DNA of 64,000 bases from Candidatus Enterousia sp. (GCA_045546195.1 JAZQCH010000001.1:231489-295488); one strand, 5' to 3'. Shown: positions 1,624 to 63,316, counted from the first letter of the stretch. Numbers and translations are program-made. The notes: generated by a model not told the origin, from the letters alone.

Positions 1624-3267
1624 ATGAAACATTATGATGTAATCATTATTGGTGGCGGACATGCGGGCACGGAATCGGCCGCCGCGTCCGCCCGTCGTGG
1701 TGCGAAAACATTGTTGTTAACCATGGCGCAATCCGACCTGGGGGCGTTATCGTGTAACCCCAGTATTGGTGGTCCCGGCAAATCCCAGATGGTTGCCGAA
1801 ATGGATGCGTTTGGTGGCGTTATGCCGCGTGCCGCCGACCGTGCGGGGATTCATTGGCGCACATTGAATGCGACACATGGCGCGGCGACACGCGCCCTGC
1901 GTGCGCAAATCGACCGTGATTTATATCATAATGCGATTGTTGATATTTTGTCGGAATATAAAAATCTGGATGTTGTTTTTGAACCGGTTGAATCTGTGGA
2001 TTTAGAAAACGCAATCGTTAACAACAAATATCATGCGCGCGCAATTGTTTTAACGACGGGAACATTTTTGAACGGCACGGTCACCCGTGGTGCGGAAAAA
2101 ATCCCGTCGGGACGTTTAATGGACGACGGCACATACCAAGACCGCGACCAAAATATATCAAATATTTTACAGAACGCGGGCTTTCGCATGTTGCGCCTGA
2201 AAACGGGCACGCCTGCGCGCATAAAACGCGATTCGATTGATTTTTCCGTCTGTGAAATTCAACCCGGCGACACGCCCCACGATTGGTTTTCCGACGGCGA
2301 TGAAAACAATAATTATGACGCGGTCTGCTATATCACACATACAACCGAAACTACGCACCAGATTATTCGTGATAACATCAAAAACGCGCCAATGTACAAC
2401 GGCGACATTCGTGGCACCGGCCCGCGCTATTGCCCCAGTCTGGAAGACAAGGTTATGCGTTTCCCCGAACATACATCACACCATGTGTTCCTTGAACCTG
2501 AGGGCTATGCCAGCGACCTTATCTATCCCAACGGCATTTCCACCAGTTTTGGCGCCGACATCCAGGACATCTGGATTCGTTCAATCCCGGGTCTGGAAAA
2601 CTGCGAAATTGCGCGCTATGGCTATGCGATTGAATACGATGCGATTGATGCGCGCGCCCTGAACGATAAATTACAATCCACGGACCGGCCACACCTGTTC
2701 TTTGCGGGTCAAATCAACGGCACATCCGGGTACGAAGAAGCGGCGGCCCAGGGCCTGGTTGCGGGGGCAAATGCTGCGGCGTATGCGCTGAATCTGCCGT
2801 ATTTGGAAATTGACCGCACAAATTCAATGATTGGGGTACTGATTGACGACATAACAACATTGGGTGTGGATGAACCATATCGTATGTTCACATCGCGCGC
2901 GGAATACCGCCTGAAACTGCGGGCGGACAATGCGATTGCACGCCTGGGAAAAATCGGTGTGGATTTGGGGTTAATTGACGCGGCGGCATACGAACGGAAA
3001 TTGGCGGCGCGCGCCGACCAAATTGCCGAAAATGATAAATTTTATGCGGGATATATCGCGCGTAATGAACGCGAAATTGCCGCCTATAAACGCGACGCAG
3101 AATTAAAGATTCCGTCTGATTTTGTGTATTCGGGCCTGCCGGGGCTGACCAATGAATTGGTTGAAAAATTAACGGCAACGCGCCCGGAAAACATTGCCGA
3201 CCTGACGCGTATACCGGGCATGACCCCCGCCGGCATCATGGTCGTGCTAAGAAAAATCAAGGCATAA
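1624..3267 (+). CDS. mnmG: tRNA uridine 5-carboxymethylaminomethyl modification enzyme MnmG (GidA); 3' end rebuilt by an adjacent insertion
   Basis: 547 aa; FAD motif 'DVIIIGGGHAGTE', 'GPRYCPS', 'FLEPEG', 'GYAIEYD', 'FAGQINGTSGYEEAAAQGL', 'EPYRMFTSRAEYRL' aligning along MnmG rather than the shorter TrmFO; C-terminal 17 codons are duplicated downstream at 4558-4609. Confidence 0.85.
   Translation: MKHYDVIIIGGGHAGTESAAASARRGAKTLLLTMAQSDLGALSCNPSIGGPGKSQMVAEMDAFGGVMPRAADRAGIHWRTLNATHGAATRALRAQIDRDLYHNAIVDILSEYKNLDVVFEPVESVDLENAIVNNKYHARAIVLTTGTFLNGTVTRGAEKIPSGRLMDDGTYQDRDQNISNILQNAGFRMLRLKTGTPARIKRDSIDFSVCEIQPGDTPHDWFSDGDENNNYDAVCYITHTTETTHQIIRDNIKNAPMYNGDIRGTGPRYCPSLEDKVMRFPEHTSHHVFLEPEGYASDLIYPNGISTSFGADIQDIWIRSIPGLENCEIARYGYAIEYDAIDARALNDKLQSTDRPHLFFAGQINGTSGYEEAAAQGLVAGANAAAYALNLPYLEIDRTNSMIGVLIDDITTLGVDEPYRMFTSRAEYRLKLRADNAIARLGKIGVDLGLIDAAAYERKLAARADQIAENDKFYAGYIARNEREIAAYKRDAELKIPSDFVYSGLPGLTNELVEKLTATRPENIADLTRIPGMTPAGIMVVLRKIKA
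3217..3267 (+). repeat. direct repeat copy 1 of mnmG 3' terminus (within the functional ORF)
   Basis: 'gggcatgacccccgccggcatcatggtcgtgctaagaaaaatcaaggcataa' repeated at 4558-4609 with 8 mismatches in 52 nt; first 21 nt identical. Confidence 0.8.
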
Positions 3268-3284
3268 AAATCACAGCCCTTTTT

Positions 3285-3312
3285 GTCATTCCCGCGCAGG
3301 CGGGAATAGGGG
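3285..3312 (+). repeat. hairpin repeat copy A (attcccgc-gcag-gcgggaat; 8-bp stem, 4-nt loop)
   Basis: 'gtcattcccgcgcaggcgggaataggg' also at 4130-4158 (+) and 4523-4551 (-); followed by 'cttgaaaa' -35-like box. Confidence 0.8.
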
Positions 3313-3320
3313 CTTGAAAA

Positions 3321-3650
3321 TTACTGTCCTTGTTTGAATCCATCAACAATATATTCAATAATTTTCGCAAGTATAAATGGTGTACAAAAAGCCAATATTA
3401 AATACAAAATAATAAACATATCGCCATCTAAAAAGTCATCCCAATCCGCCATAATGGCCATAATACAACACAGCACAATAGCTACAACTAGGCATAGGCG
3501 ACGAACTCCCGTATTGTTCGGAACCGCAACTAATCTAATCATTTGTAAGATTTTATTGATGTTGTTATGAAAATCATCAATAAACCAAATGATTATACCC
3601 CAAACAATACAAAATAACATAATACCTAAAATTTCTATTAACAGTTCCAT
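3321..3650 (-). CDS. small hydrophobic membrane protein (~109 aa, 2-3 predicted TM)
   Basis: ORF track 3321..3785 trimmed to internal Met 'MELLIEILGIMLFCIVWGIIIWF' whose ATG (3650) lies 4 nt after the stop of the upstream gene; strongly hydrophobic segments; AT-rich codon usage unlike neighbours. Confidence 0.45.
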   Translation of the reverse strand: MELLIEILGIMLFCIVWGIIIWFIDDFHNNINKILQMIRLVAVPNNTGVRRLCLVVAIVLCCIMAIMADWDDFLDGDMFIILYLILAFCTPFILAKIIEYIVDGFKQGQ

Positions 3651-3654
3651 CTTT

Positions 3655-4017
3655 TTATTCCTTTTTGCCGATAATTGCCCAAATGAGTGCGCTGATTGTA
3701 AAGAAAAGCCAGCCACCAAAAATACCACCCAAAGCAGAGAGTTGGTACACTGTATATTTTCTCTTAATATTTCGTTTCCAAGCAATAAACATTGGAGTAT
3801 ATGTCATGATTATTATAATTGGCACAAATATCAAAGAACGGACAAAAGATACTTTAAGGGCAATTTCTTGTGCGCTAGAATAAGCATATTCGGCATTTAA
3901 GGCGGTTTGTCTAATATCGTCATAAGTCATCGCAAATGTAAATATTATACCAATGGTGATTGCCCAAAGAAACATCCTTAATGGAAACTTATTGTTATTA
4001 AGTTGGTTTGTTTCCAT
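3655..4017 (-). CDS. small hydrophobic membrane protein (~120 aa, ~3 predicted TM)
   Basis: ORF track 3655..4134 trimmed to 'METNQLNNNKFPLRMFLWAITIGIIFTF' start preceded by AGGAGAG Shine-Dalgarno (revcomp of 4024-4030); hydrophobic stretches; forms tight operon with 3321..3650. Confidence 0.5.
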   Translation of the reverse strand: METNQLNNNKFPLRMFLWAITIGIIFTFAMTYDDIRQTALNAEYAYSSAQEIALKVSFVRSLIFVPIIIIMTYTPMFIAWKRNIKRKYTVYQLSALGGIFGGWLFFTISALIWAIIGKKE

Positions 4018-4129
4018 AATATTTTCTCTCCTTATACAAAAATAACCGCCATAATTCCCATCGGATTCATGTCTAATTATATCAGGAAAATATACAAATG
4101 TAAAATTGTGTGTATTGGATAAAAACCTT

Positions 4130-4158
4130 GTCATTCCCGCGCAGGCGGGAATAGGGTC
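4130..4158 (+). repeat. hairpin repeat copy B / left terminal inverted repeat of GIY-YIG cassette
   Basis: 'gtcattcccgcgcaggcgggaatagggtc' is the exact reverse complement of 4523-4551. Confidence 0.85.
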
Positions 4159-4187
4159 TTGAAAAAATTTGTGTGCCCTTGTACAAT
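4159..4187 (+). promoter_or_regulatory. sigma70-like promoter (TTGAAA-17 bp-TACAAT) reading into GIY-YIG gene
   Basis: -35 TTGAAA at 4159-4164, 17-bp spacer, -10 TACAAT at 4182-4187; the -35 is part of the repeat-associated 'cttgaaaa' motif also seen at 3313-3320. Confidence 0.5.
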
Positions 4188-4193
4188 TTTGAT

Positions 4194-4523
4194 ATGAAAG
4201 ATTATCACTTCTGGGTTTATATATTGTTTGATGAACGCGCCAAGGGCACTTATATTGGTGTGACGAATAATCTTGAACGGCGTATGTATGAACACAAAAT
4301 GGGATTGGACGACGGTTATACCAAAGAACATAATATTCATAAATTGGGATATTTTGAATACTACAAATATGTTAATAATGCGATTGCGCGTGAAAAACAA
4401 TTAAAGAAATGGAAACGTGCATGGAAATATCGTCTGATTGAAACCATGAATCCAAATTGGCTTGATTTGGCCGACGATTTAGAGAAAAACATAGCGTTTT
4501 GGAAAAACAAAGAAACAGAATAG
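4194..4523 (+). CDS. GIY-YIG nuclease family protein (UPF0213/YhbQ-like, stand-alone)
   Basis: 'HFWVYILFDERAKGTYIGVTNNLERRMYEHK' = GIY...YIG motif pair with the conserved Arg and Glu; ORF track gives 4173 (GTG) but ATG 4194 sits just downstream of the predicted -10; ~109 aa. Confidence 0.8.
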   Translation: MKDYHFWVYILFDERAKGTYIGVTNNLERRMYEHKMGLDDGYTKEHNIHKLGYFEYYKYVNNAIAREKQLKKWKRAWKYRLIETMNPNWLDLADDLEKNIAFWKNKETE

Positions 4524-4551
4524 ACCCTATTCCCGCCTGCGCGGGAATGAC
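4523..4551 (-). repeat. hairpin repeat copy C / right terminal inverted repeat of GIY-YIG cassette
   Basis: 'gaccctattcccgcctgcgcgggaatgac' = reverse complement of copy B; begins at the GIY-YIG stop codon. Confidence 0.85.
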
Positions 4552-4557
4552 AAAATG

Positions 4558-4609
4558 GGGCATGACCCCCGCCGGCATTATGGTGGTGCTGCGAAAGATT
4601 AAATCATAA
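4558..4609 (+). pseudogene. displaced orphan copy of mnmG 3' terminus (encodes ...GMTPAGIMVVLRKIKS*)
   Basis: 52-nt segment 85% identical to 3217-3267, in frame ending with TAA, no upstream ORF body. Confidence 0.75.
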
Positions 4610-4616
4610 AAACATC

Positions 4617-4645
4617 TTGCCAAAATTGGCGGTGTGCGGTATAAT
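4617..4645 (+). promoter_or_regulatory. sigma70-like promoter (TTGCCA-17-TATAAT) for Cys-rich protein gene
   Basis: TTGCCA 4617-4622, 17-bp spacer, TATAAT 4640-4645. Confidence 0.55.
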
Positions 4646-4672: not shown

Positions 4673-4702
4673 GCCTAATCCAAAGGGACGATTAGATTAG
4701 GC
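4673..4702. promoter_or_regulatory. 30-nt palindromic element 'gcctaatc-N14-gattaggc' between promoter and start codon
   Basis: perfect 8-bp inverted arms; same 30-mer family (25/30 identical) found twice at 62009-62123 upstream of paralogous gene. Confidence 0.6.
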
Positions 4703-4755
4703 ATAATTTCCAAAAACAATTTCCCAGATTTACGCATGTTTTATCCCCCTTTGTT

Positions 4756-5793
4756 GTGCCTAAAAAAAACGTCGGTTTATTTGCGGTATTTTTGACGGCA
4801 ATAATCGGTGTTCGTGACGCGAACGCATACACCAGTTATATATGTAACGAGATTGGCTCCTGTTCAACTTACTATGTCGCCGGTGGATTCTCCACCACCG
4901 TATCATCCGTGCCAGATGTATATAGTTATGCAGAAGGTTGTGCCCAAGCTGTATGGGTCCGAACCAGTGCCGACTCAACCAGTTCTGGCGGATGCGTGTT
5001 GATTCCAACGTGTCTGTCCTGTGATGACGGGTATGAATTAACAGATAGCGCGTTGCCAATCCTGTTTAACAACAGCAATTCTGCATGTACCAGTGTCAAC
5101 AGTCAATACGACATAAAATACTGTGCCAAAAAATCTGACAGTGGGGACAGCGGCAGTACAACAACCTGCACATCCAGCAATTGTGCATCGTCTGGTTGGT
5201 CGACACACAGTACAGGATACCTGGTGCAAACATTTCGCGAATGTGTAAATGACCAATGTGTTGAAACAGTGCGATATGGTTGTGCCCAGGGTTATTTTGG
5301 ATCAGATGATGGCATAAATCCATATCTAAGTTCGGCATATGGTTGCGTTAAATGTCCGGGCTATTATGTGAGTGGCAACAGCTATGCGACAACAACCAAT
5401 ACCACGCTTGTGCCCACGGTTGCGGGCTGTTATGTTGTGGCAACCGGCGACGAAACAGAATTCTCAGACGGAACAGGAACCTATGTTTTTACCCCGTATT
5501 CCAACGCAACCGAATACTGTTATTATGATTTTGGCAGTTGTACCGGCGTTACACCGGCTTGTGCCACGTCGTCCGGCACAGCATTTGCTGTGGTTTCTGG
5601 CACCAAGGCACACGATGAAACGGGAACTCATTGCTGGTGCAATGTCAATGGCAAAAGTTTCTATTTTTCTTCGCAAAGCACTGCATCTGCTTGTGCAGCA
5701 AACTGTGATGACATGTGTTCAAATGCCGTTTTTGGATTTGGCGCAAATGGCGGTCAACCAATGGTTTCGCTAGACGACCTTGGGTGCTATTAA
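4756..5793 (+). CDS. secreted Cys/Gly/Ser/Thr/Tyr-rich protein, no recognisable domain (paralog P1)
   Basis: 345 aa, GTG start, signal peptide 'MPKKNVGLFAVFLTAIIGVRDANA', >30 Cys, low-complexity S/T/G/Y composition; compositionally similar to 62159..63316 and 30416..32557. Confidence 0.6.
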   Translation: MPKKNVGLFAVFLTAIIGVRDANAYTSYICNEIGSCSTYYVAGGFSTTVSSVPDVYSYAEGCAQAVWVRTSADSTSSGGCVLIPTCLSCDDGYELTDSALPILFNNSNSACTSVNSQYDIKYCAKKSDSGDSGSTTTCTSSNCASSGWSTHSTGYLVQTFRECVNDQCVETVRYGCAQGYFGSDDGINPYLSSAYGCVKCPGYYVSGNSYATTTNTTLVPTVAGCYVVATGDETEFSDGTGTYVFTPYSNATEYCYYDFGSCTGVTPACATSSGTAFAVVSGTKAHDETGTHCWCNVNGKSFYFSSQSTASACAANCDDMCSNAVFGFGANGGQPMVSLDDLGCY

Positions 5794-5851: not shown

Positions 5852-5927
5852 GCCGGTGTAGCTCAGCTGGTAGAGCATCTCATTCGTAATGAGGGGGTCG
5901 TAGGTTCAAGTCCTATCACCGGCACCA
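5852..5927 (+). tRNA. tRNA-Thr (anticodon CGU)
   Basis: cloverleaf: acceptor gccggtg/caccggc, D-arm gctcagctggtagagc, anticodon loop ttCGTaa, T-arm ggttcaagtcc, encoded CCA. Confidence 0.85.
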
Positions 5928-6013: not shown

Positions 6014-7351
6014 ATGATTCAATATAAATTTGGCAAAAGTTATTATATACAAAGCACAGGCAATGTTTTCCATGAACGCGAACTAATCGTTGTTCACGCT
6101 GAATCCAGCCGTGGTCGCCATGCGTACAGTTATGACCAGTCGCGTGGCACCGCCCGTGATTATCAAAACAGGGCCAATGATTTGGGCCTGGCCGAAGAAT
6201 ATATTGCGGAAAAACTGGCCCAGGTATCATTTCGTGCGGACGAAACACCAGTTGCGGCACATGAAAAAATAAGTAAATTTATCGATTCTAAAAATCAGTA
6301 CGCTGAATTTGATGCCTCAATCGCCGCGGATATAAACGCCCGCGAAGATTATCATGTGCGTCTGGAAAACGCCGAATACTATAAACAGGCACTGTTGGCA
6401 TTGACAAAATTTGAACCTGCGGGCGTCCAGGCTATTCTGACTGGCACAAAATATCCATTTTCCATGGCGGCGCATGATTTTGCCCGTGGCATTTCGCATC
6501 GTCAAATTAAACAAGATATTGCCAAATTGTCATCCCCGGTTAAGAAACGCCTGCGTGAATTTGCGGCGCAACGCAATTATATCCTGTCGGACGAAGCATG
6601 TAATACCGAAGCGCGCGACTATATCGACACTGTCAGGCGCAGTTATCCGCTGATTAACCATTCGCCCGAGCGCGTAGAATACATCATCGCCCGTGCGGTT
6701 GATGATATGTTGCGTGATGCGTTGGAATACAAATACTACAAACGCACTGGCAATATGGCGATATTTGTCGGTCCATATGGTCAACGCACCGCAGATTCTT
6801 TATCTGATACAGAATTGCTGGATGTTGTTGGTTGGAACGCGATGCAAAATTATGGCAATGCATTACAGGTCATCCGTCGCATGAATCAAATTATCGCCGC
6901 TGAACGCGACATAACGCCATTTATGACCGAATTGAACAAGACCCTGGGCGACGGCTATGCCAACCAAGAAATAATTCGTATGATGTTTGAAACATTGTCG
7001 CCACACTATAATAAATTCAAGCACAATAAAAAGGTCACAGAATTTATCGGTCGTCTGCGCTTTTATGTCAAAGACGCGCGCCTGGCACAGCACATGGCGG
7101 AAACATTTGGCCTAAAAGAAGCCCCAAAACCAAACAAGGACAAGGCGCGCGCCAAACTGTTGGCCGCCGCCGACCGTATTGTGTCGGGCGACAATGTGTC
7201 GGGTGTTGTCGTTATTGACCGTGAATTACAGTTGGTACGTGATTTTGCGGTCGAACCCACCCCGGAAACATTTGGTCGGATTAAGAAATCTATAAAACCA
7301 ACCGCGGTCCAGGCTGAAATCCTGCGCAAATATGGTCCGCGCCAAAAATAA
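6014..7351 (+). CDS. hypothetical cytoplasmic protein (445 aa), no recognisable domain
   Basis: ORF with extended -10 'tggtataat' and GGGGGAA SD upstream; no signal peptide or TM; adjacent to tRNA-Thr. Confidence 0.55.
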   Translation: MIQYKFGKSYYIQSTGNVFHERELIVVHAESSRGRHAYSYDQSRGTARDYQNRANDLGLAEEYIAEKLAQVSFRADETPVAAHEKISKFIDSKNQYAEFDASIAADINAREDYHVRLENAEYYKQALLALTKFEPAGVQAILTGTKYPFSMAAHDFARGISHRQIKQDIAKLSSPVKKRLREFAAQRNYILSDEACNTEARDYIDTVRRSYPLINHSPERVEYIIARAVDDMLRDALEYKYYKRTGNMAIFVGPYGQRTADSLSDTELLDVVGWNAMQNYGNALQVIRRMNQIIAAERDITPFMTELNKTLGDGYANQEIIRMMFETLSPHYNKFKHNKKVTEFIGRLRFYVKDARLAQHMAETFGLKEAPKPNKDKARAKLLAAADRIVSGDNVSGVVVIDRELQLVRDFAVEPTPETFGRIKKSIKPTAVQAEILRKYGPRQK

Positions 7352-57907: not shown

Positions 57908-57981
57908 GGCCTGGTGGCAGAGTGGTTATGCAGAGGACTGCAAATCCTTGGATGCCGGTTCGATTCCGACCCAGGCCTCCA
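57908..57981 (+). tRNA. tRNA-Cys (anticodon GCA)
   Basis: acceptor ggcctgg/ccaggcc, anticodon loop ctGCAaa, T-arm ggttcgattcc, encoded CCA. Confidence 0.85.
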
Positions 57982-57985
57982 CAAA

Positions 57986-58013
57986 TAAAAAAGAGCCCCT
58001 GGGGGGCTTTTTT
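57986..58013 (+). terminator. rho-independent terminator after tRNA-Cys
   Basis: 'aaaaagagcccctggggggctttttt'. Confidence 0.7.
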
Positions 58014-58156: not shown

Positions 58157-58186
58157 ATTCCGACCCAGGCCTCCACAAATAAAAAA
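58157..58186 (+). repeat. 30-bp direct repeat of tRNA-Cys 3' end (second copy)
   Basis: 'attccgacccaggcctccacaaataaaaaa' identical to 57963-57992; followed by its own terminator 'caccccatgtgggtgatttttt'. Confidence 0.8.
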
Positions 58187-58237
58187 ACACCCCATGTGGG
58201 TGATTTTTTATGTAAGTTTAAGGAAGGGAATATATTC

Positions 58238-59225: not shown

Positions 59226-61886
59226 ATGAGTAATAAATGGGTATATACCTTTGGTAATGGCGCCGCCGAAGGTCAGGCAGATATGAAAAATCTGCTGGGT
59301 GGCAAGGGTGCGAATTTAGCAGAAATGAACTTGGTTGGTTTGCCTGTTCCTGCGGGCTTTACGGTGACGACCGATGTTTGTACATATTATTATGCGAACA
59401 ACCAGACATATCCGTCTGACTTGATGGACCAGGTGCGTTCTGGTATTGCGCATGTTGAATCCATTATGGGTAAAAAGTTTGCGGATTTGGAAAATCCATT
59501 GTTGGTATCTGTGCGCAGTGGTGCGCGCGTATCTATGCCGGGCATGATGGACACAGTTTTGAATTTAGGTTTGAACGACGAAACGGTAAAAGCGTTGGCG
59601 AAAATTTCTGGCAACGAACGTTTTGCGTATGATTCATATCGTCGCTTTATCATGATGTTCAGCGAAGTTGTTATGGGCGCAGACATTGACTTGTTTGAAC
59701 ACACACTGGAACGCATGAAGGAAGATAAAGGCTATAAACTGGACACAGAATTGACCGCCGAAGATTTGAAAGACTTGGTTGAAAAGTTCAAAGAAATCGG
59801 TGTTAAAATCGGCAAAGTATTCCCCCAGGATCCATGGAAGCAGTTGGAAATGGGTATCGGTGCCGTATTCGGTTCATGGATGTCTAAAAAGGCCATCACA
59901 TATCGTAAATTGAATAACATCCCAGCCGACTGGGGTACCGCTGTTAATGTTCAGGCGATGGTATTCGGTAATTCTGGCGATGACAGTGCGACCGGCGTAT
60001 GTTTCAGCCGTGACCCAGCAACCGGTGAAAACAAATACTATGGTGAATATCTGATTAACGCCCAGGGCGAAGACGTTGTTGCGGGTATTCGCACCCCCCA
60101 GCCTATGAGCAAGGATGATTCCGGCCGCCTGTCATTGGAAGAAGCAATGCCAGCAGTCTATAAAGAATTGTGTGATGTTCGTGAAAAACTGGAACGTCAT
60201 TACAAAGATATGCAGGATATGGAATTCACAATCGAACATGGAAAACTGTGGATGTTGCAGTGCCGTAATGGTAAACGTACCGCCGCCGCCGCTGTCCGTA
60301 TGGCGGTTGAAATGGTGGAAGAAGGCCTGTTGACCAAAGAAGAGGCAATCCTGCGCGTTGGTGCGGACCAACTGGACCACTTATTACACCCAATGTTGGA
60401 CCCCAAGGCTGAAAAGCGTGTTATCGCAACCGGTCTGCCTGCGTCCCCAGGTGCGGCTGTGGGTATGGCGGTCTTTAACGCCGAAGATGCCGAAAAATGG
60501 GCGGCTGCGGGTAAACAGGTTATGCTGATTCGTATCGAAACATCACCCGAAGACATCGCGGGTATGAACGCGGCCCAGGGTGTTATCACCGCCCGTGGTG
60601 GTATGACATCACACGCCGCGGTTGTGGCGCGTGGTATGGGAACACCATGCGTATCTGGTTCGCCTGACATTAAAATTGATTATGAATCCAAGACTTTAAA
60701 GACAACATCCGGTGTTGTTATTAACGAAGGCGACTGGATTTCAATTGACGGCGCCAAGGGTCAGATTATCGAAGGCAAAATCCCAACTGTATCTGTTGAA
60801 CTGACGGGTAATTTCGGCACATTGATGAAATGGGTTGATGAAATCAAAACATTAACGGTCAAGGCAAACGCCGAAACACCAAAAGACGCAAAACAAGCAC
60901 GCGACTTTGGTGCCGAAGGTATCGGTCTGGCGCGTACAGAACACATGTTCTTTGACCCATCCCGTATCCAGGATATGCGCGAAATGATTCTGGCCGAAGA
61001 CGAAGCCGGTCGCCGCGCGGCCTTGGCAAAATTGTTGCCATACCAGAAATCTGACTTCGTCGAACTGTTCAAGATTATGGATGGTCTGCCGGTTACAATC
61101 CGTTTGATTGACCCACCGCTACACGAATTCTTGCCACACACCGATGCGGAAATCGAAGAATTGGCGGCGCACATTGGCAAATCTGTTGAATTTATTAAAC
61201 AGCGTGCCGAACAATTACACGAACAGAACCCAATGTTGGGTCATCGTGGTTGCCGTTTGGCGATTACATACCCAGAAATCTGCGAAATGCAGACACGCGC
61301 GATTCTGTCGGCGGCATTGGAAGTTAAAAAGGCAGGCATCCGCGTATTCCCAGAAATCGAAGTTCCATTGGTTGGCTCGAAAAAAGAAGTGGATATCGTC
61401 AAGGCTGTTATCGATGCCACGGCCCAGTCGCTGTTCGCAGAAACGGGTGAATCTGTTGAATACACAGTTGGTTCTATGATTGAATTGCCACGCGCAGCCG
61501 TGCTGGCAAACGAAATCGCGGAATCTTGTGAATTCTTTGAATTCGGTACAAACGACCTGACCCAGACAACATTGGGTATGTCGCGTGACGACACAGCCAA
61601 GATTTTGGATGAATATCGTGCACGTGGTGTCTATGTTGCGGATCCGTTCGCATCTGTTGACCAGTTGGGCGTTGGTCTGTTGATTAAAGACGCGGTTAAC
61701 AAAGCGCGCGATACCAAGGGCGAACATATCCACCTGGGTGTATGTGGTGAACACGGTGGTGATCCAGAATCCATCATGTTCTTCCACCAGTGCGGATTTA
61801 ACTCGGTCTCATGCAGTCCGTTCCGCGTGCCAATCGCACGTTTGGCGGCGGCCCAGGCTGCGGTTAAATACCCACGCAAGAACTAA
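59226..61886 (+). CDS. ppdK: pyruvate, phosphate dikinase
   Basis: 886 aa; ATP-grasp N-terminus, phospho-His domain 'GGMTSHAAVVARGMG', C-terminal PEP-utilising TIM barrel. Confidence 0.95.
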   Translation: MSNKWVYTFGNGAAEGQADMKNLLGGKGANLAEMNLVGLPVPAGFTVTTDVCTYYYANNQTYPSDLMDQVRSGIAHVESIMGKKFADLENPLLVSVRSGARVSMPGMMDTVLNLGLNDETVKALAKISGNERFAYDSYRRFIMMFSEVVMGADIDLFEHTLERMKEDKGYKLDTELTAEDLKDLVEKFKEIGVKIGKVFPQDPWKQLEMGIGAVFGSWMSKKAITYRKLNNIPADWGTAVNVQAMVFGNSGDDSATGVCFSRDPATGENKYYGEYLINAQGEDVVAGIRTPQPMSKDDSGRLSLEEAMPAVYKELCDVREKLERHYKDMQDMEFTIEHGKLWMLQCRNGKRTAAAAVRMAVEMVEEGLLTKEEAILRVGADQLDHLLHPMLDPKAEKRVIATGLPASPGAAVGMAVFNAEDAEKWAAAGKQVMLIRIETSPEDIAGMNAAQGVITARGGMTSHAAVVARGMGTPCVSGSPDIKIDYESKTLKTTSGVVINEGDWISIDGAKGQIIEGKIPTVSVELTGNFGTLMKWVDEIKTLTVKANAETPKDAKQARDFGAEGIGLARTEHMFFDPSRIQDMREMILAEDEAGRRAALAKLLPYQKSDFVELFKIMDGLPVTIRLIDPPLHEFLPHTDAEIEELAAHIGKSVEFIKQRAEQLHEQNPMLGHRGCRLAITYPEICEMQTRAILSAALEVKKAGIRVFPEIEVPLVGSKKEVDIVKAVIDATAQSLFAETGESVEYTVGSMIELPRAAVLANEIAESCEFFEFGTNDLTQTTLGMSRDDTAKILDEYRARGVYVADPFASVDQLGVGLLIKDAVNKARDTKGEHIHLGVCGEHGGDPESIMFFHQCGFNSVSCSPFRVPIARLAAAQAAVKYPRKN

Positions 61887-61919
61887 AAAACAATCCCCCA
61901 TCTGGGGGATTTTTTTTTG
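61887..61919 (+). terminator. rho-independent terminator after ppdK
   Basis: 'aaaaacaatcccccatctgggggattttttttt'. Confidence 0.7.
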
Positions 61920-62008
61920 TTTCCCAACATGGTGGATTGATATAAATAAAATCGCAACAAAAAACGTCCAACGCCCCAGATTCCCTGGCGAATCGTCAAA
62001 AAAATTAT

Positions 62009-62123
62009 GCCTAATCCAAACGGTGGTTTAGATTAGACATCTTTTATACAGCAATTTTGTCCCAAAACCGGTAAAAAGTCAATCCTAATTTGTGCCTAAT
62101 CTAAACCACCGTTTGGATTAGGC
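62009..62123. repeat. pair of 30-nt 'gcctaatc...gattaggc' palindromic elements in inverted orientation (29/30 identical) flanking a 57-bp spacer, upstream of Cys-rich paralog P3
   Basis: left arm 62009-62038 'gcctaatccaaacggtggtttagattagac'; right arm 62094-62123 is its reverse complement; same family as 4673-4702. Confidence 0.75.
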
Positions 62124-62158
62124 AGCGTTATGTACAAAAACAAGGGGAGAAAACAACC

Positions 62159-63316
62159 ATGCATATTTTTGGCCAAGATATCGATATGTACAACCTGTTA
62201 CGTCGGGTTCGCCGTGTCGGGTTGCGTACTGCGGGTATGGTTGTTGCCCTGTTTGCGTCAAACCGTGCGTCGGCGGTGGCGATTACGGACGTCTGCCCCA
62301 GTTGCCGAATTGTCGGCAATTCAATTTGTAATATGGCAGCCAATCCACAGAGTGTAAATGAAAGTGGCGCGGTCGGCACCTGGGTTAATTGGTGTATACC
62401 ACAGCAGAATTTGGGAACAACTACGTATCCGTTGATAATTGATTCCAGCTGTGTGACGAAATTAAAGAATTGGGGCTTGTGTACAACCTATCCAAATGGG
62501 TGTGGATACATGTTGTATAACCCAAACCTGTCGTGTTCCAGTGGTAATGTGAACTATTCCGGTGTATATACTGTGTTTGCGCAAAATGGTATGACGACCG
62601 TGGGCAGTATGACATTGCCATGGACTTCGGTTGCGGGCTATCAATCTTCCAGCGGTCTGATTGTGGCGTTTCAAAACGGTGACATCAATGAAACGGCATG
62701 TTGTATGATTTCTGACACATCTGTCAACTATATCAGCGGTATTTGTATGATTACATCTGGCACAGATGAAAATTGCGCGATAATGGCGGCATGCGGATAT
62801 GTCCCAAATTCATACACATGCGGTTATATGGGGATTAGCAAGACTGGCACCATATCTGGTTCAAACGCATGTCCATCTGATTTTGAATCCTATTTCCGTA
62901 CCAGTCTGTCAACCGGCTGGTGTGATAATTATGGTTCTGGCATCTATGTCGAAGGGCTGGGTGCTATGCTGATTAGCAAGGCCTGTAATGGCACCCTGGA
63001 TACGACATATTGTAATGGCAGATTTTCAAGATGTACATGTGGTTTTGTACTTGATTCATGTAACACGGCATCTGGCTATGAACGTACTGGAAAAACCAAC
63101 GACCCGATTACATACATTGGTGCCGATGGTTATTGTCAGTGTACCAGTGATTCTGCGTCCGTGTTAAATCATGTTTCTGGCGTTACATATTCTGGCTATT
63201 ATTCCAGCGGTCTGTCCAAATGCGTCGCAACCCCCAGCCCCAGCACGGTATCTGGCCTGAGTGACACAACTGGTTCTTATACTGTTTTGTATGATGGGGA
63301 TTGCGAATGGGAATAA
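62159..63316 (+). CDS. secreted Cys/Gly/Ser/Thr/Tyr-rich protein, no recognisable domain (paralog P3)
   Basis: 385 aa; GGGGAGA SD; signal-like 'VGLRTAGMVVALFASNRASAVA'; ~35 Cys; composition like 4756..5793. Confidence 0.6.
   Translation: MHIFGQDIDMYNLLRRVRRVGLRTAGMVVALFASNRASAVAITDVCPSCRIVGNSICNMAANPQSVNESGAVGTWVNWCIPQQNLGTTTYPLIIDSSCVTKLKNWGLCTTYPNGCGYMLYNPNLSCSSGNVNYSGVYTVFAQNGMTTVGSMTLPWTSVAGYQSSSGLIVAFQNGDINETACCMISDTSVNYISGICMITSGTDENCAIMAACGYVPNSYTCGYMGISKTGTISGSNACPSDFESYFRTSLSTGWCDNYGSGIYVEGLGAMLISKACNGTLDTTYCNGRFSRCTCGFVLDSCNTASGYERTGKTNDPITYIGADGYCQCTSDSASVLNHVSGVTYSGYYSSGLSKCVATPSPSTVSGLSDTTGSYTVLYDGDCEWE

Follow-up and report, generated by a model that had tools for sequence, protein, structure and literature searches.

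The window, as we call the whole 64-kb stretch of DNA analysed here, is ordinary chromosome carrying gidA, ileS, mraY/ftsW/murG, ppdK and similar genes. Two of its genes, P1 and P3, encode cysteine-rich proteins that have signal peptides and fall into no Pfam family. An alignment of P1 homologues (P0012-P0018) shows 22 invariant cysteines; an AlphaFold model of P1 made with 8 sequences is too poor for use (mean pLDDT 46). The features of the P1 locus are as follows.

4617-4645, plus strand: P1 promoter, sigma-70-type, TTGCCA-17-TATAAT (11/12 matches), outside the invertible block
4673-4702, no strand: putative P1 switch site 1; left arm 4673-4684 GCCTAATCCAAA, spacer 4685-4690 GGGACG, right arm 4691-4702 ATTAGATTAGGC
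4687-4773, no strand: P1 inverted block, 87 bp, bounded by GACG (4687-4690) and CGTC (4770-4773), the inner 4 bp of the spacers
4705-4751, minus strand: putative P1 switch cargo; SD AAGGGGGA 4751-4744, ATG 4737-4735, 11 codons MRKSGKLFLEI 4737-4705
4756-5793, plus strand: P1, secreted Cys-rich protein; window form with GTG start and no SD upstream, VPKKNVG...
4758-4787, no strand: putative P1 switch site 2, partly coding; left arm 4758-4769 GCCTAAAAAAAA, spacer 4770-4775 CGTCGG, right arm 4776-4787 TTTATTTGCGGT

The 30-mer GCCTAATCCAAAGGGACGATTAGATTAGGC at 4673-4702 is laid out as a 12-nt arm, a 6-nt spacer and a second 12-nt arm, the two arms being complementary at 10 of 12 positions. Even with up to 3 mismatches allowed, 0 matches are expected by chance. 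An earlier note had described this palindrome as lying between a near-consensus promoter and the start of P1, and it does, with slightly shorter distances: 27 nt instead of 30 from the -10 hexamer to the element, and 53 nt instead of 54 from the element to the GTG at 4756. That note overlooked a degenerate partner (site 2), which lies 85 bp from site 1 and overlaps the P1 start codon. In the whole 64 kb the element is present in three copies only (4673-4702, 62009-62038 and 62094-62123), all of them at Cys-rich genes. The second and third copies belong to the P3 locus.

62009-62038, no strand: putative P3 switch site 1; arm 62009-62020, spacer CGGTGG 62021-62026, arm 62027-62038
62054-62082, minus strand: sigma-70-like promoter in the P3 segment, TTGACT-17-CAAAAT, pointing away from P3
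62094-62123, no strand: putative P3 switch site 2; arm 62094-62105, spacer CCACCG 62106-62111, arm 62112-62123
62159-63316, plus strand: P3, secreted Cys-rich protein with its own SD (AAGGGGAG) and ATG

Both P3 sites are complete and their spacers are exact reverse complements of each other. As had been noted, each copy is 25/30 identical to the P1 element, the two are inverted, and site 2 ends 35 nt before the ATG at 62159; the pair was called perfect, but is in fact 31/32 (97%) complementary.

Surroundings of the P1 locus and other repeats

At the 3' end of gidA (window 3216-4612) there is an insertion of 1.29 kb (3271-4557), on either side of which stands a 55-bp copy of the gidA end (3216-3270 and 4558-4612; 85% identical). 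The insertion contains a GIY-YIG ORF (4173-4523), two ORFs without Pfam matches and three 32-38-nt palindromic repeats TTGTCATTCCCGCGCAGGCGGGAATAGGGTCT (3277-3314, 4128-4159 and 4522-4559). It is absent from the related genomes L095 and L097 and resembles a GIY-YIG element of the homing or mobile kind. P1 and a tRNA gene (5852-5924) are followed directly by a 445-aa ORF (6014-7351) that belongs to no Pfam or NCBIfam family and is kept beside the P1 allele of L097.

P1 itself is hypervariable at a fixed locus. Between the window (4756-5793) and L097 (1501-2568) the protein is 57% identical and most of the gene is left unaligned by blastn, while the flanks (gidA end, promoter, tRNA, 445-aa ORF) are 92-99% identical, which points to diversifying selection or to replacement of alleles, in addition to the switch. 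Elsewhere in the window, a 51-nt direct repeat (57963-58013 and 58157-58207; 82% identical, 194 bp apart) has two different terminator hairpins at its ends and adjoins a tRNA gene (57908-57978).

Both orientations of the P1 block

In the window orientation the minus-strand cargo at P1 reads AAGGGGGA-N6-ATG. From the window DNA it was predicted that a flip of 4687-4773 would bring this SD and ATG in frame with P1 and yield MRKSGKLFLEI-MPNLIVG...; the predicted reading is ATG CGT AAA TCT GGG AAA TTG TTT TTG GAA ATT, then the reverse complement of the right arm of site 1. A first look at the same locus, in the P1-family gene P0016/P0017, found 13 assemblies that are all identical and in a single orientation. 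The predicted form was found in public assemblies: in each of three 90%-identity clusters there are two N-terminal forms exactly 11 aa apart.

P1 cluster: window form MPKKNVGLFAV... (P0012, P0019, P0020, P0022); 11 aa longer, MRKSGKLFLEFMPNLIVGLFAV..., MRKSGKLFLEFMPNLIVG... (P0021)
Second-lineage cluster: window form MPKKNVGF..., MPKKNVGFLTAI... (P0013); 11 aa longer, MQKSGKLFLEIMPNLIVGFLTAI..., MQKSGKLFLEIMPNLIVGF... (P0023)
Third-lineage cluster: window form MPKIIVG..., MPKIIVGLFAAL... (P0016); 11 aa longer, MQKTGNFLIDFMPKKIVGLFAAL..., MQKTGNFLIDFMPKKIVG... (P0030)

The replacement of PKKN by PNLI is the trace left when the segment-adjacent arms trade places.

The DNA of these loci differs by a precise inversion. 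Contig L100, which encodes P0030, has 3 mismatches to L078 in 2,992 bp of flank (99.9% identical) and an exact 87-bp inversion without mismatch, GACG...CGTC; against all of L078-L084, a sister lineage, it has 3 to 10 flank mismatches and the same exact 87-bp inversion. Bases 1-87 of L096, which encodes P0021, are window 4773-4687 reversed with 3 mismatches, the flanks being 97% identical and the contig beginning exactly at GACG. In both L096 and L097 the left arm of site 2, reverse-complemented, adjoins spacer 1 (GACG-TTTTTTTTAGGCAC), and L097 and L098 have the flipped state at the syntenic locus beside gidA. The crossover at P1 maps within the spacers GGGACG and CGTCGG, to their inner 4 bp GACG/CGTC. 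At the P1-type locus the window orientation is found in about 27 contigs and the flipped one in about 10.

Both segment orientations are present in three lineages (L096 versus the window; L100 versus L078-L084; L097 and L098 versus P0013) whose P1 proteins are only 39-60% identical, so the same 4 bp must have been hit independently three times or more. In the window strain, whose arms differ (ATTAGATTAGGC versus TTTTTTTTAGGC), no more than 4 bp at the junction form a perfect inverted repeat. A repeat this short rules out both homologous recombination and assembler error as the source of the P1 inversion. Three marks of an inverton are found at P1, namely inverted repeats around a short segment, both orientations at the locus and, judged by sequence, an orientation-dependent signal.

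The P3 block

A promoter scan of 61850-62200 found a single promoter-like site, the one at 62054-62082 that points away from P3. P3 site 1, together with the A-run on its left, makes a terminator-like hairpin for leftward transcripts, the order on the minus strand being site 1 and then AATTTTTTTG. Upstream of site 1 lies a stretch homologous to the promoter of the modules described below, now decayed to TCGCAA...CCAGAT. P3 thus has the look of a switch with an invertible promoter, at present turned OFF. Its orientation is the same in 12 of 12 assemblies, namely the window and 11 others (L064-L074), with no flipped form among them, and we infer flipping at P3 by analogy.

This invariance bears on the view that the two orientations are fixed structural alleles, produced by rare ancient inversions between short repeats and stable ever since, with neither a dedicated recombinase nor ongoing phase variation. 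Such a view would account for P3, for the partly decayed arms of the P1 type, and for the fact that both orientations are known from assemblies and not from mixtures within one sample. We nevertheless regard it as improbable. It needs the three or more events at the same 4 bp described above, in flanks that are still 99.9% identical around an exact inversion, and it needs them at a repeat too short for RecA-type events; nor does it fit the conservation of the site consensus across species described in the next section.

A family of paired sites in related genomes

One genome per species was scanned with the pattern CCTAATCYAAA-N4-8-TTRGATTAGG, giving 63 loci. About 50 of these lie in 15 MAGs labelled Alphaproteobacteria, Rickettsiales, Proteobacteria or bacterium, whose names suggest an animal-gut origin (deer, wild mice and others); the remaining loci are unrelated terminator-like hairpins from other phyla. 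A search for the same site in metagenome contigs gave 4 loci only. At least 15 MAG species of gut Alphaproteobacteria share the site consensus, and three MAGs have about 9-13 pattern-matching loci each.

The modules of these relatives have a common order: a sigma-70 promoter, a leader of about 25 nt, a full site, a segment of about 52 nt, a second site and the gene. In about 30 modules of related MAGs a strong promoter, homologous to that of P1, stands at the same distance from site 1. The full site consists of the arm ATGCCTAATCYAAA (consensus), a 6-nt spacer and the inverted arm, with arms of 11-14 bp. The segment is rich in A/T-tracts, often with CCCGGAWWTCCGGG at its centre. The gene starts 0-60 nt past the second site, and its product almost always has a signal-peptide-like N-terminus and often 4-10% Cys. 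Among 47 non-redundant pairs the centre-to-centre spacing is 85 bp in 22, 84 bp in 11, 86 bp in 8, 83 bp in 4, and 94 and 97 bp in one each.

The spacer sequence varies from module to module (CCACCC, CGTTCC, CGACCC, CCTCCC, CGGACG and others), and the spacer of the second site is the reverse complement of the first. Complementarity between partner spacers is 6/6 in 28 of the 47 pairs, 5/6 in 8 and 4/6 in 11. Type-B pairs, whose sites overlap the start codon, match at the inner 4 of the 6 positions only. About half of the second sites have only one good arm.

The spacers also bear on what the palindrome is for. The earlier note had proposed a repressor or activator site, that is, an operator for a dimeric regulator, which might loop the two sites 85 bp apart and co-regulate the Cys-rich family. 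The dyad-symmetric arms are strongly conserved across species, site 1 lies close (27 nt) downstream of a strong promoter, and a spacing of 84-86 bp, about eight helical turns, would suit looping. An operator, however, does not need partner spacers that are reverse complements of each other, and should not have its arms and the intervening DNA physically swapped and inverted at the same locus; half of the second sites are without one arm, and no regulator gene is linked. That a shared dyad-symmetric recognition element controls the Cys-rich genes stands, but because the spacers co-vary and the segment inverts, we think it very unlikely that the element is a repressor or activator site. Instead, the co-variation of the spacers together with the observed inversion of arms and segment indicates that the dyad is most likely recognised by a site-specific recombinase, and an 11-6-11 site with an asymmetric, partner-matched spacer is built like a recombinase core site and unlike an operator. 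A bound recombinase could act secondarily as a roadblock.

The same survey speaks to the possibility that the element is a miniature mobile element (MITE, REP or Correia-like) that lies near genes by chance, with opposite orientations reflecting independent insertions. Like such elements it is palindromic and multi-copy, contigs often break there, and the window holds other palindromic repeats. Its distribution, on the other hand, is far from random: the 47 site pairs found in the relatives by the genome-wide motif search lie directly upstream of signal-peptide genes, strictly placed after the promoter and directly before or overlapping the gene start, and there are no target duplications. Nor would insertions explain a locus with near-identical flanks that differs by a precise inversion only, or why the three copies in 64 kb are all at such genes. 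We therefore consider a randomly scattered MITE, which the earlier note had named as the finding that would speak against it, extremely unlikely.

Two further observations concern the sites of relatives. In the MAG JAEXCU01 (L001, L013, L048 and L055) both sites of each module have the palindromic spacer CGGCCG; if a recombinase is directed by the spacer, such sites would have no orientation, and deletion would be possible besides inversion. In many MAG and Logan assemblies, contig ends coincide exactly with sites (L036, L046, L049, L006 and L055); L101 begins 1 nt before the ATG of a site, and L096 at the GACG of spacer 1. Breaks of this kind are to be expected where an assembly graph is tangled by the presence of both orientations or by the many repeats of the site, and the starts of L096 and L101 may hint at samples of mixed orientation.

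Segment orientation and cargo in the relatives

Reverse-complemented segments are found among paralogous modules of single MAGs (L024 versus L030; L047 and L034 versus L022; L052 versus L005 and L061), and paralogous modules of opposite segment orientation keep near-identical promoters and gene starts. Two different MAGs have homologous modules of opposite segment orientation in L019 and L038.

The segments carry different signals. On the sense strand of L022, from promoter to gene, two sites resemble terminators: one is the site-1 hairpin with TTTTTATTTT after it, the other CCCGGATTTCCGGG with ATTTTTTTGT after it. In L047, its flipped paralogue, the sole terminator-like site between promoter and gene is antisense, and sense terminators are absent. 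In many modules of the relatives the block has a T-run and, besides, a CCCGGAWWTCCGGG hairpin with another T-run behind it. The segments of L004 and L088 contain a sigma-70 promoter. In a third class of modules, to which P1 belongs, the ORF (MPNLNHG..., MPNPNVG...) begins with the ATG that opens site 2, and a strong SD and a start codon lie in the segment. Read from the sequence, the orientation-dependent signals are an SD, ATG and 11 codons at P1, a promoter at P3 and terminators in L022/L047.

Such hairpins raise the question of an RNA device in the 5'-UTR, in which the site-1 hairpin alternates with a pairing of its 3' arm and loop with site 2 (a 20-bp helix with a U-run) and serves as an attenuator or RNase III target. 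In many modules site 2 is indeed a left arm, the complementary spacer and TTTT(T) directly upstream of the SD, and the site-1 hairpin followed by a T-run is called terminator-like. The leader of P1, however, folds no better than shuffled sequences (z = -0.91) and matches no Rfam family: at the gathering threshold the whole window gives two tRNAs only, and local searches at an E-value threshold give only sub-threshold matches to generic hairpins and miRNA precursors. Arm sequence is conserved beyond what pairing alone requires, and an RNA device leaves three things unexplained: that segments are inverted, that an SD and ATG stand on the other strand, and that the protein has two N-termini. The 5'-UTR RNA structure suggested earlier is not borne out, and we judge an RNA device decidedly unlikely; the hairpin and T-run features are probably the output of terminator-type switches.

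In L004 a promoter-bearing segment (1537-1660) lies between divergent genes, the left one for a Cys-rich secreted protein, the right one for an ABC transporter. Its promoter currently faces the transporter through the site hairpin and then a T-run, and a flip could redirect the single promoter between the two divergent genes. Switch-linked secreted proteins of a related MAG have eukaryote-type Cys-rich domains (L005, downstream gene at about 2100-2200, minus strand; L004 910-1524, minus strand). One of them has Colipase N- and C-terminal domains (E about 1e-9 to 5e-10), which are unusual for a gut bacterium, and the other Ephrin_rec_like (E = 7.5e-8).

Alternative N-termini or signal peptides are also seen in 90%-identity clusters of Cys-rich proteins with a CPGDD motif (P0083/P0115, P0092/P0142/P0145, P0074/P0128 and P0084/P0148), for example MCILTNATAA... 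versus MKPLCKIRVF...VGTARAA..., 294 aa versus 261 aa, and 278 aa versus 259 aa. One of these clusters comes from a species sampled by more than 100 contigs. The alternative N-termini of the CPGDD clusters may be further switches or gene-calling effects.

Proposed mechanism

We consider it very probable that the palindrome is the core site for site-specific DNA inversion, at which a recombinase flips the short segment between paired sites. The arms would be the half-sites bound by the recombinase and the spacer the crossover region. Sites would pair in opposite orientation, 83-86 bp apart, and strand exchange in the spacers would invert 79-87 bp. A distance of 83-86 bp corresponds to about eight helical turns and the segments are rich in A-tracts, which would fit a tightly phased, near-minimal synapse.

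The outcome would differ from module to module. At P1 the window orientation has the SD and ATG facing backwards, leaving the GTG inside site 2, which has no SD, so this form is predicted to be off or weakly translated; its PKKN n-region still gives a plausible signal peptide. In the flipped orientation the fixed upstream promoter would transcribe SD-ATG-MRKSGKLFLEI in frame via site 2 into P1. At P3 the block promoter faces away in the window orientation, which is predicted to be off, and leftward transcripts would meet the site-1 hairpin and then a T-run. In the terminator-type modules of the relatives, one orientation only would give two sense-strand terminators after the fixed promoter. 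The ON/OFF consequences, and reversibility within a population, are what we infer from these arrangements. Annotation is affected as well: which start codon and N-terminus such a gene has depends on how its block is turned, so that gene callers list two proteins for it.

No recombinase gene was found in the window by Pfam search of 39 ORFs or by a scan of ORFs of at least 120 codons for tyrosine and serine recombinase motifs, and none lies consistently near the modules according to motif scans of 615 kb of related loci and Pfam search of the ORFs beside L088. The single recombinase gene in the 615 kb is XerC-like (L021), scoring 292 bits against an equivalog cut-off of 335; L094 has a serine-recombinase fragment far from the site. 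From the 11-6-11 geometry and the matching of spacers, our guess is that the enzyme would be a tyrosine recombinase. The one-armed second sites and the 4/6 spacer match of type-B pairs, which demonstrably recombine, are awkward for a classical member of that class. The 4/6 type-B spacers would suit a serine invertase too, one whose overlap is the central 2 bp (GA/TC, GT/AC).

In its widest form the proposal is that one unlinked recombinase, possibly of the Xer type, drives about ten or more 85-bp mini-invertons genome-wide, with three kinds of cargo, and so phase-varies a repertoire of Cys-rich secreted proteins; we hold this to be about evenly balanced. If true, few invertible switches in nature would be smaller, and their size would approach the lower physical limit for synapsis. 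One site would be reused for a promoter, a terminator, or an SD with start codon and signal-peptide N-terminus, and would itself partly encode the signal peptide (MPNL... or MPKK...). A secreted Cys-rich repertoire, some of it with eukaryote-like domains, would be phase-varied at the transcriptional or translational level.

With site-specific inversion as its explanation, a nondescript palindrome would become a genetic switch open to testing, in a gut lineage without cultured members. Metagenomic reads reveal how the 87-bp block is oriented, which would give a per-sample ON/OFF profile of the Cys-rich secreted family. A 28-bp site with 83-86-bp spacing makes a cassette of about 115 bp, a potential minimal promoter, terminator or RBS switch once the enzyme is found.

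Comparison with known systems

Bacteroides fragilis Mpi, Mycoplasma penetrans mpl and E. coli fimS are promoter invertons; such systems act at multiple loci, with a master or unlinked recombinase and a shared repeat consensus. They too are small invertible promoters at surface-protein genes, a description that fits P3, L004 and L088. The segments here, in contrast, are 2-4 times shorter and rigidly spaced at about eight helical turns, the repeat itself is a full 11-6-11 palindrome, and the host clade consists of uncultured gut Alphaproteobacteria.

In anatomy the sites resemble those of dif/XerCD, loxP/Cre and FRT/Flp, which have inverted arms of 11-14 bp, an asymmetric 6-bp spacer, matched partner spacers and a crossover within the spacer. 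The minimum spacing reported for Cre-lox is about 82 bp, and the spacing of about 85 bp here is close to it. The arm of E. coli dif shares 5 of 11 positions with the arm here and is unrelated. Unlike those of the classical systems, many partner sites here are one-armed, type-B spacers match at 4/6 positions only, and the recombinase is putative. Xer-type recombinases do serve phase variation in Mollicutes, as with Xer1 of M. agalactiae and XerC of Ureaplasma (PMC3599477).

The cwpV switch of C. difficile, which is flipped by RecV, has its promoter upstream of the invertible region, and in one of the two orientations an intrinsic terminator forms in its leader; the product is a surface protein and the recombinase gene is unlinked (PMC2784873). 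The terminator-type modules of the relatives are alike in having the promoter outside, a terminator in one orientation and no linked recombinase. However, cwpV has imperfect 21-bp repeats 195 bp apart at one locus, whereas the sites here are 28-34 bp long, 83-86 bp apart and present at many loci per genome, and its cargo is a terminator, whereas that of P1 is an SD and start codon and that of P3 a promoter.

Partial intergenic invertons (Milman et al. 2023; Chanin et al., PhaVa) have one repeat in the leader and the other in the 5' end of the ORF, and change the N-terminus (PMC10028968). By the placement of its sites the P1 switch would be of the same class. Partial intergenic invertons are mostly long and shufflon-like, swapping domains, whereas the P1 block has 87 bp and would swap an SD, an ATG and 11 signal-peptide codons.

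A literature search of limited coverage, which is weak evidence of novelty, found no paper with the motif in a relevant bacterial context and none on invertons in this clade. Invertons and phase variation as such are already known. What sets the present switches apart is the tiny and rigid size of 79-87 bp, the conserved and fully palindromic site, the use of one site family for three kinds of cargo, and a second site that would partly encode the start of a signal peptide.
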